Shown here: piece by piece, positions 31,079 through 31,766 of the stretch
Numbering within the stretch: the stretch's first letter is position 1
How the letters are laid out: every line of letters begins with the position of its first letter
Notes under the pieces: generated by a model
What the model was told of the DNA's origin: nothing
Databases searched by the model: none
Seen by the model: only the letters and a program-made list of their open reading frames with translations
Position numbers and translations under genes: made by a program
From: Escherichia coli
GTDB lineage: Bacteria > Pseudomonadota > Gammaproteobacteria > Enterobacterales > Enterobacteriaceae
Assembly: GCF_013315695.1 (NCBI RefSeq)
Contig: NZ_CP054353.1
DNA length: 64,000 nucleotides
Reading direction: 5' to 3' (one strand)

Positions 31079-31723
31079 TCTATTTTCCTCTGCACAATGT
31101 ATTAGTTTCTCCACAAAACAGAGAAGAACACCTGCGGTGGCAGCCGCCCGGATGGATTGGGTTATGAGCCCGTCGTCCGGTGATGCTCTTCTCTGTTTTG
31201 TAAAAAGAGCGGTACCAGCCGGAAGCAAGTGTACAAACTGGTACCGCCAAAGCAGTGGCTGTTGTGGTGGGGTTGTCACTCAGGCGTATGGTCAACCTGA
31301 CAACCCGGTGTCCTCAACGGGGAAAGAGTAACCCCGCCATACTTACCGCCGCGCCATTTCGCGGATTACCACAACGCTGAGAGCACTTAGCCAGTTACGG
31401 CACCACACTTTGTCGCGGTTCCATAAATGCCCTCATCGTTGCACCCTGGTCTCTTCCCAGGCGTCAAACCGAATCGCCACGCTGGTTAGGCGTCTTATCA
31501 GCATCCTCATTGACTTGCACATTCCGGCTATCTGGTTTGTTTGCCCGAGCAAGGAGTGGATTGTCCCCTTTAACGTCCCCAGACCGCTAACGACGCATGT
31601 GCCATACGCCGTGTTACAACCAAATTTTGTTAGTACCTTGTTTGTAGGTCTGGAGAGAAAGATAAAATGAAGTTGCGCATTATGCAAGTGTTTTATTGCG
31701 AGATAAGCAATTTGGTGGGTAAT

Positions 31724-31744
31724 GAAAAGCCACCTTCTGGTGGC
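31724..31744 (-). terminator. intrinsic terminator downstream of cI
   Basis: Hairpin gccacc-ttct-ggtggc followed by a T-run on the minus strand. Confidence 0.5.
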
Positions 31745-31766
31745 TAATTGATGTTGAGGTAGGGGG

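Follow-up and report, generated by a model that had tools for sequence, protein, structure and literature searches.

We analysed a 64,000-nucleotide (nt) stretch of Escherichia coli DNA (contig NZ_CP054353.1; below, the window) that carries a lambdoid prophage of the Shiga toxin (Stx) phage type. A gap of 688 bp separates the repressor gene cI from rdgC, with which the protein-coding part of the leftward operon begins; we found that, far from being a gene desert, it consists of conserved RNA modules that move independently of one another. We are highly confident that this gap is a noncoding, modular RNA leader. Read on the minus strand, it holds a structured RNA of ~180 nt that we call motif C, a DicF-type cassette (modules D and E) and a long hairpin (module F) ahead of rdgC. 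The reading that we prefer, with a probability of about 0.45, is that the gap is an N-independent leader of the leftward promoter pL that carries a DicF-type cassette, and that motif C is the best candidate for its antitermination element. The features of the leader, from cI to rdgC, are as follows.

31721 to 31745, minus strand: cI intrinsic terminator, AGCCACC-AGAA-GGUGGCU then UUUUCAUU, found by terminator scan.
31655 to 31715, minus strand: region of the leftward operator and promoter (OL/pL), with two palindromic operators and two candidate −10 elements.
31437 to 31615, minus strand: motif C, a structured RNA of ~180 nt with five helices and a pseudoknot.
31590 to 31612, minus strand: helix P1 of motif C, a hairpin.
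Within motif C, minus strand: helix P2, which encloses the variable P3 hairpin, CCUUG loop.
31514 to 31530, minus strand: invariant single-stranded stretch of motif C, UAGCCGGAAUGUGCAAG.
Within motif C, minus strand: helix P4, between the single-stranded stretch and P5.
31479 to 31493, minus strand: helix P5 of motif C, with a 7-nt YU(C/A)ACCA loop.
~31463 to 31470, minus strand: GGU(G/U) that pairs with the P5 loop in pseudoknot PK2 of motif C.
31445 to 31461, minus strand: helix P7 of motif C, with a GAAGAGA loop.
31372 to 31442, minus strand: C2, in which a long helix (GCAACGAUGAGGGCA/GUGCUCUCAGCGUUG) encloses a variable insert, drawn from alignments.
31257 to 31375, minus strand: module D, a pre-DicF-type 5′ domain in which the helix GUUGUGG/CCACAAC closes three hairpins.
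31349 to 31364, 31319 to 31335 and 31270 to 31306, minus strand: hairpins 1 to 3 of module D.
31202 to 31262, minus strand: module E, UUUGGCGGUACCAG-(19-nt loop)-CUGGUACCGCU then CUUUUU, small-RNA-like and in the position of DicF.
31202 to 31248, minus strand: intrinsic terminator of module E, GGCGGUACCAG-(19 nt)-CUGGUACCGCU then CUUUUU.
31113 to 31201, minus strand: module F, a hairpin with a 15-16-bp perfect outer stem ACAAAACAGAGAAGAG/...UUCUUCUCUGUUUUGU and internal branches.
31076 to 31090, minus strand: ribosome-binding site and AUG of rdgC, GAGGAAAAUAGA.

The first-pass annotation of this DNA had described a noncoding, hairpin-rich space of ~690 bp left of cI, with no N gene and with an RdgC-like open reading frame (ORF) as the first leftward gene. 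All of this holds: the gap contains no conserved ORF, and rdgC matches PF04381. The three gap ORFs named there (31080–31295, minus; 31410–31670, plus; 31433–31687, minus) exist, none has an arginine-rich motif, and profile searches returned zero matches for them in Pfam or in the N and Nun families of PHROGs. The sole PHROG match in the gap, to the plus-strand ORF 31137–31331, is to a family of ‘unknown function’, a product of automatic ORF calling across this RNA region in other phages. We found no N-like protein among the genes of the leftward operon from rdgC through int. Across 21 diverged homologues of the central 180 nt there is no continuous open frame, and the lengths of these homologues vary by non-multiples of three.

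The minus-strand RNA from ~31665 to 31080 (586 nt) has a predicted folding energy of −225 kcal/mol, compared with −190 ± 7 kcal/mol for dinucleotide shuffles (z = −4.98), and 0/100 shuffles fold equally well. The term hairpin-rich is thereby borne out, and the stem gggttgtca...tgacaaccc that had been quoted as an example exists as hairpin 3 of module D, at 31270–31278/31298–31306, ~13 nt to the left of where it had been placed. The gap has a G+C content of 53–56% compared with ~40% in the flanks, and its RNA strand is G-rich, not C-rich. ARAGORN called no tRNA or tRNA-like element in the gap. A search of Rfam 15 at E ≤ 10 gave a single match within 31079–31766, a hairpin-ribozyme fragment (31116–31139, 14.5 bits, E = 8.3) far below the gathering score of that family (65 bits); a SOX2OT match (30925–30983, 13.8 bits) lies inside rdgC and outside the gap. 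No Rfam family covers the gap modules, and none matched C, D, E or F in 14 related loci, in a search that recovered DicF, tRNA, C4 and isrK as positive controls, DicF scoring in prophage Qin.

BLAST searches of phage and E. coli genome collections revealed sharp homology boundaries at 31102, ~31269, ~31375 and ~31631. The interval 31102–31631 is ~99% identical in cdtI, mEp460-like, 2H10, Ayreon and Stx2c phages. Within it, 31369–31612 is 82% identical to phiV10/epsilon15-like podoviruses and 31448–31625 is 78% identical to phage P1, while 31269–31375 is found in 4,741 of 5,426 complete E. coli genomes because prophage Qin matches. The homology common to other phages stops at ~31102, a mosaic boundary near the rdgC ribosome-binding site.

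Motif C is very probably a real structured RNA. In an alignment of 21 representatives with pairwise identity below 92%, 98.5% of the cells are standard base pairs, as compared with 29–42% when the pairing partners are slid by 1–3 columns, and double compensatory changes occur at 10 pairs; 0/500 shuffles attain the observed values. Compensatory changes, visible already in the alignment with phage P1 and phiV10, support helices P1, P2, P4, P5 and P7 as well as the pseudoknot PK2, whose covarying pair is C-G in 18 sequences and A-U in three, with zero exceptions. A possible second pseudoknot, PK1, between the P1 loop and GUGC, is invariant and is neither supported nor refuted by covariation. On the other strand the frequent G-U pairs would become A-C mismatches, so the structure is that of a strand-specific RNA. 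A covariance model (R2) finds motif C as a single copy in the window (149.6 bits, E ~1e-45); the model was built from the 21 members including the window sequence, so that this match is partly by construction, and the other members score 145–155 bits. At E ≤ 10, Rfam 15 has no match to motif C here or in the 14 related loci, and the motif C sequences are absent from the searchable literature; by these two measures motif C is apparently an undescribed RNA family.

The motif C family is specific to temperate phages of Enterobacterales. The invariant 17-mer UAGCCGGAAUGUGCAAG occurs in at least 120 IMG/VR contigs. A 19-mer from the motif occurs in 24 species-representative genomes, from genera including Kosakonia, Citrobacter, Klebsiella, Enterobacter, Kluyvera, Phytobacter and Erwinia; all are Enterobacterales except two contigs from metagenome-assembled genomes, which are probably mis-binned. 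At 49 of 97 distinct loci a same-strand cI-like repressor gene ends a median of 231 nt upstream of motif C, a spacing in which nothing beyond a terminator and an operator-promoter region would fit, and in several loci helix P1 starts ~10 nt or less from a predicted start beside operator-like repeats. In epsilon15-type phages motif C follows the annotated repressor and sites for integration host factor, and phage P1 carries it between tRNA-Ile and ban within the ban operon, which C1 controls. A same-strand tRNA abuts motif C in 44/126 loci, either tRNA-Arg 163 nt past the 17-mer or tRNA-Ile ending 96 nt before it. Motif C is single-copy in each phage and always co-oriented with the downstream genes and tRNAs. 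At eight other loci the first ORFs downstream are function-unassigned or xis, never N, and the covariance model detected no motif C in seven put-carrying phages. What these settings share is that motif C comes early in transcripts under repressor control, which often bear untranslated cargo.

Two variants of the motif C neighborhood are of interest. Phage epsilon15 (L159, 1201–1273) has only the 5′ part of motif C (40 bits), comprising helix P1 and half of P2; this piece follows the annotated repressor and integration-host-factor sites, precedes a terminator and gene p50, and has an annotated ‘RNaseIII’ site next to it on the opposite strand. It looks like a decayed copy. At one distant locus (L101, 1077–1203) an unusually long, 127-nt Rfam tRNA match lies between motif C and an F-type hairpin, with no ARAGORN call, and may be a tRNA with an insertion or a tRNA-like leader cargo.

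Modules D and E probably form a DicF-type cassette. Module D, compared over 123 nt (31253–31375), is 90% identical to the Qin locus (L003, 3107–2985) immediately 5′ of DicF; E. coli ATCC 8739 carries the Qin match in the ydfC–dicB interval, with DicF immediately 3′ of it. Module D is also 76% identical to the annotated ‘dicF-like region’ of phage P1, just downstream of P1ban. The module thus occurs in three lineages: the lambdoid group, Qin and the phage P1 leader. Compensatory changes are seen in hairpins 2 and 3 (CGGGG/CCCCG to CUGGG/CCCAG; UUGUCA/UGACAA to UUGCCA/UGGCAA), and in each of the three, D leads into UUUG and a terminator hairpin, the hairpin sequences being unrelated. DicF is cut from the dicBF transcript by RNase III to a 190-nt form and by RNase E to a 53-nt form (bioRxiv 10.1101/2023.04.14.536235). 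Counting 190 nt back from the 3′ end of DicF in Qin lands on the start of the module D homology, and D is therefore the 5′ domain of pre-DicF.

Module E folds with −22.5 kcal/mol and shares with DicF only UUUGGCGGUAYCAGUUU. The Rfam DicF model (RF00039), which scores 76.7 bits on the Qin locus as a positive control, has no match in the window at its gathering threshold and none in 30900–31900 at E ≤ 10. In a crude comparison with RNAduplex, E pairs with the −60 to +30 region of ftsZ at −24.8 kcal/mol, compared with a mean of −30.7 for shuffled sequences, and 94% of the shuffles pair at least as well. This comparison lends no support to module E as an ftsZ-targeting DicF; judged by its sequence, E would be a different small RNA in the position of DicF. 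Its loop has at least two alleles among relatives. A small regulatory RNA had been among the possibilities raised by the first-pass annotation, and homology supports it, both through the ~90% identity to the pre-DicF region and through the terminator hairpin.

Two by-eye candidates in D and E were set aside. A boxA-like CGCUCUUUUUACAA (CGCUCUU) in the 3′ arm of E was dropped since it is not conserved among relatives, which have CGACCUUUUU or CGCCCUUUUU. The loop of hairpin 3 of D (CCAUACGCC, ~31283–31291) is perfectly complementary to GGCGUAUGG in helix P1 of motif C (~31600–31608); this 9-nt complementarity is not kept in phage P1 (CCAUGCGCC vs GGCGUCUGG), and it is probably coincidental.

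The cassette is flanked by two long helices. C2, with homologues at 61 loci, may serve as a substrate of RNase III; here its 3′ strand overlaps the helix that closes module D, and in epsilon15/phiV10-like phages that strand abuts tRNA-Arg. The outer stem of F shows compensatory changes among 30 distinct homologues, distant loci included, e.g. ACGCAACACACAAGAG/...CUCUUCUGUGUUGUGU. Conserved GGAGAAACUAA follows F and is itself followed by the rdgC ribosome-binding site, and F always precedes GGAGAAACUAAC and the first gene. Like C2, F is a long duplex of the type cleaved by RNase III; it may be a site of such cleavage or may control translation.

At the right end of the gap, the cI terminator hairpin and its U-tail stand directly past the cI stop codon, just upstream of OL/pL. 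Operators of the form TTGC-N7-GCAA lie at 31673–31687 and 31696–31710, and one of the same type lies at the rightward operator OR in the cI–cro intergenic region (32480–32494). A pattern search found 8 such sites in 64 kb, as compared with 2.95 expected, and three of them flank cI. The candidate −10 elements are CATAAT, within the proximal operator, and TATCTT at ~31659–31664. The palindromes at 31673–31710 are best read as OL, overlapping a leftward-firing pL. With operators of the cI type and the cI terminator at the right end, leftward transcription is therefore predicted to start at ~31650–31672, and motif C begins ~40–60 nt downstream of this predicted start.

We propose that, in a lambdoid prophage without N, the gap serves as the untranslated leader of the leftward early operon, which is under repressor control. 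After induction, a share of the pL transcripts would stop at the E terminator. Cleavage within C2, module F and the helix that closes D, all of them long helices, would resemble that of pre-DicF and would yield a small RNA of ~50–190 nt with a target other than ftsZ. Polymerases that express rdgC through xis and int would have to cross the E terminator and ~580 nt of untranslated RNA without N. Acting in cis and folding as it emerges just past the promoter, motif C would protect the elongation complex or the transcript from termination, both intrinsic and Rho-dependent, and the G-rich, highly paired leader would itself disfavor Rho loading. F would separate or gate the first mRNA, like the RNase III site in the lambda N leader. 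Module D, which always stands directly before a terminator, is a second candidate read-through element. We regard the assignment of motif C as a cis-acting antitermination element as tentative, with the odds somewhat against it; it is made by analogy with known systems. Slightly more doubtful is the extension that motif C constitutes a third class of RNA-only processive antiterminator after put and EAR, in which case C would load onto RNA polymerase just past early promoters under repressor control and would replace N in many N-less temperate phages of Enterobacterales, namely in mEp460/cdtI-type lambdoids, in Stx2c and some Stx2a phages, in the ban operon of phage P1 and in epsilon15-like phages.

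Several observations weigh against this proposal. The antitermination role of motif C is drawn from its position and from analogy. In phage P1 the strong terminator after D lies upstream of C, and C therefore cannot carry polymerase past that terminator. The sister phage mEp460_4F5 (L160, 1760–2720, minus) keeps E, F and the downstream genes and has neither C, D nor N; its slot after pL holds a gene for a 122-amino-acid (aa) HTH_17 (excisionase/MerR-like) protein and a D-like domain with the GUUGUGG/CCACAAC closing helix. The single copy of C in each phage leaves the rightward operon without one. A permissive scan found terminators downstream of C at 76/88 loci in the sense direction, as compared with 71/88 antisense and 65/88 in an upstream control; with the controls equally positive, terminator enrichment was discarded as a non-discriminating test of antitermination. 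At 48 of 106 distinct loci there is no tRNA, D or F downstream of C, and the picture of a leader with cargo is therefore not general. A consensus promoter scan called no site at OL/pL. Finally, helix P1 of C can be likened by eye to stem I of the HK022 put RNA (ACGGCG...CAUGCGUCG..AGCG), and the put model gives it −0.1 bits.

That last comparison belongs to a direct test for an HK022 put site, one of the possibilities that had been raised for this gap. The gap has the position expected of put, just downstream of the early-promoter operators (31673–31710) in an N-less lambdoid operon. A covariance model (R1) was built from eight sequences (HK022 putL and putR, HK639, phiEt88, CobraSix, S9-5, UPF_BP1 and PdC23) with a consensus of two stems and conserved GAACGGCGCG...CAUGCGUCGG and GGCGGGUUCAGGAUGAACGGCAAU. 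Run over the whole window with filters off at E ≤ 10, it gave no match in 31079–31766; run on the gap alone, it reached at best 2.3 bits (E = 0.73). With the put alignment, nhmmer found nothing in the gap at E ≤ 100. Module D can also be aligned by eye with put (CGAA..GGCGCG..GUAA..AUG..GGCGGG(G)UU in common), and since the put model and nhmmer are silent, such by-eye resemblances are no evidence. Elsewhere in the window the put model gave two weak matches, both probably chance: 2793–2864 (plus; 18.9 bits, with a rough E of ~1e-3 from a shortened calibration) and 33365–33458 (plus; 11.4 bits, E = 0.15), the latter just past the cII-like gene in the rightward operon.

That the gap holds a genuine putL/putR site is thus highly improbable. 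Such a site would occupy the slot of putL, just after pL in an N-less lambdoid phage, and it could claim the by-eye resemblances of helix P1 of motif C and of module D, but neither the covariance model nor nhmmer gives a significant match, and five helices with a pseudoknot in ~180 nt are a different architecture from two stems in ~70 nt. What survives of the put-like suggestion is the idea of an RNA that replaces N, now attached to motif C. A more serious competitor, although we consider it unlikely, is that motif C is no antiterminator and has a trans-acting or processing job of its own; read-through of E would then be leaky and the leader an attenuator that keeps early-left expression low. 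In that case motif C could titrate a host protein or nuclease as a decoy or sponge, stabilize the RNA in the manner of a 5′ cap, or, as a platform for self-cleavage or processing, release neighboring tRNAs and small RNAs. The same-strand tRNAs adjoining C in 44/126 loci, the travel of C as a mosaic module independent of downstream content, its place after a terminator and tRNAs and not at the promoter in phage P1, and the retention of E and F without C in mEp460_4F5 all speak for such a role, and the invariant unpaired UAGCCGGAAUGUGCAAG and GGAAGAG together with the pseudoknot would suit a specific protein or a catalytic core. Set against this are the strong tendency of C, seen in three unrelated phage types, to come first behind early promoters under repressor control, and its constant co-orientation and co-transcription with downstream genes; moreover, no partner was identified, and Rfam gave no match to a known ribozyme or sponge family. 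A riboswitch-like sensor of a metabolite or ion, gating early leftward transcription or the choice between small RNA and read-through, is improbable. The size of motif C, its pseudoknot, its conserved junction nucleotides and its 5′-leader position are typical of aptamers, but no expression platform is attached (P7 has no U-tract after it, and the terminator stands ~190 nt past C with two other folded domains between), the sequence downstream varies by lineage (tRNA, D, ban or nothing recognizable), and no known riboswitch class matches in Rfam.

The two remaining alternatives concern the gap as a whole, and both had been entertained in the first-pass annotation. We give very little credence to a highly divergent N-like or Nun-like protein encoded by a small gap ORF. 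ORFs of 71–86 aa occur on both strands and hypothetical proteins are annotated here in some records, but these ORFs have no Pfam match, no PHROG match to N and no arginine-rich motif; they start with TTG or GTG, no frame is conserved, in homologues every frame is interrupted by stops and the indels have lengths other than multiples of three, and the substitution pattern is that of paired RNA. It is just as hard to see the gap as the decayed, functionless remnant of deleted genes. The mosaic with its sharp homology boundaries and the truncated motif C of epsilon15 would suit decay, but the modules are each retained in many phages and carry compensatory substitutions, the RNA folds at a much lower energy than its shuffles, and module D belongs to an experimentally processed RNA in Qin; a degraded remnant is excluded by the conservation of the modules and their compensatory base changes.

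The leader stands between the immunity region and a leftward operon with the order rdgC, a YfbR-like phosphatase gene, genes for five small function-unassigned proteins, xis and int. The genes around it are as follows.

31767 to 32459, minus strand: cI, with helix-turn-helix (HTH) and Peptidase_S24 domains (Pfam).
30161 to 31078, minus strand: rdgC, match to PF04381, first protein-coding gene of the leftward operon.
32557 to 32817, plus strand: Cro-like gene of the immunity region.
32810 to 33367, plus strand: CII/CP76-like gene of the immunity region.
26383 to 26637, leftward operon: xis.
25063 to 26349, leftward operon: int.

In the rightward operon we observed two tandem pairs of isrK and C4 antisense RNA (33724–33800/33822–33909 and 34587–34663/34688–34775; Rfam, 62–81 bits). 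Each pair lies inside the 5′ third of a long ORF (33364–34509; 34506–35387) whose C-terminal part is Rha/KilA-N antirepressor-like and whose N-terminal part is probably non-coding; the pairs are a duplicated, RNA-controlled antirepressor module of the P1-immI type. The same arrangement is present in single copy in mEp460, cdtI and L129. The late region has the landmarks of Stx phages at 42692–45395, namely three tRNAs, STnc100, AsxR and the NanS-p esterase gene (43434–45395). In the window no stxA or stxB ORF lies between AsxR and nanS-p, so that the prophage appears to lack stx at the customary site. A Peptidase-S11 RNA motif (Rfam RF03039, 72.8 bits) at 14941–15021 lies in host DNA left of the prophage and is unrelated to the leader.

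An N gene is missing from many lambdoid phages, among them the Stx2c-converting and part of the Stx2a-converting ones. A 2025 survey found no N in the related phage LLS and could only guess at a put-like mechanism (PMC12315714). Our analysis rules out a true put site and replaces that guess with a specific, mutable candidate RNA with defined helices and a pseudoknot. The motif C family matters whatever its function: it is abundant, supported by covariation and missing from Rfam, and it links three unrelated phage types (lambdoid, P1 and epsilon15-like). If the antitermination reading is true, untranslated cargo such as tRNAs and DicF-type small RNAs can ride ahead of early genes. The 5′ domain of pre-DicF is commoner than DicF itself and carries interchangeable 3′ hairpins, which suggests a cassette system for prophage small RNAs expressed on induction. 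DicF-family RNAs affect host division and metabolism.

Among known systems, the pL leader of phage lambda has nutL, an RNase III site and then N. As in lambda, the space between pL and the first gene in the window holds a candidate antitermination signal and a long RNase III-type hairpin before the first ribosome-binding site (F here). Unlike lambda, the window leader has no N and, by eye and without a dedicated nut model, no conserved boxA/boxB, and it extends over ~580 nt with a small-RNA cassette. The leaders of rRNA operons combine antitermination by Nus factors with RNase III stems that flank untranslated cargo. By analogy, the window leader may likewise place a promoter-proximal element before long structured untranslated RNAs or tRNAs that would otherwise be exposed to Rho, with long helices flanking the cargo; unlike the rRNA leaders, it has no boxA that could be found by eye.

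Two RNA-only antiterminators offer a closer comparison for motif C. The eps-associated RNA (EAR) is a processive antiterminator of the Bacillus eps operon and not a phage element. Like motif C it is pseudoknotted, measures ~120–180 nt, lies within an operon and is proposed to act on downstream terminators; the two differ in sequence (no Rfam match) and in taxa. The HK022 put RNAs (putL and putR) are cis-acting, RNA-only antiterminators that act via the zinc-binding domain of the RNA polymerase beta′ subunit and suppress pausing and termination. Like put, motif C is a folded RNA just after pL in an N-less lambdoid phage, upstream of terminators to be passed, and both have an enterobacterial host range. 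They differ in that put has two stems in ~70 nt and two copies, whereas motif C has five helices and a pseudoknot in ~180 nt and a single copy, occurs also in phage P1 and epsilon15-like phages beside tRNAs, and has no significant sequence similarity to put.

Modules D and E have their nearest relatives in phage P1 and in Qin. In the ban operon of phage P1, D and C both lie in one C1-controlled early operon, as they lie in one leader here, and D is followed by a terminator hairpin; the module order is reversed, D and C are separated by tRNAs and tciABC, and the terminator hairpin has no sequence relationship to either E or DicF. In Qin the place of motif C ahead of D is taken by the ydfABC genes, and module E lacks both the 5′ end of DicF and its 3′ ftsZ-pairing region, in keeping with the silence of RF00039. 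Pre-DicF in the Qin dicBF operon nevertheless resembles D and E in lying in a repressor-controlled early-left operon ahead of protein genes, and the homology of module D begins at the RNase III-made 5′ end of the 190-nt precursor. Like E, DicF begins with UUUGGCGGUAYCAGUUU and ends in an intrinsic terminator. Judging from the conservation of D and its closing helix, E would likewise be released by RNase III together with RNase E, and the DicF-type cassette of this leader is a fresh variant of a known prophage small-RNA locus.

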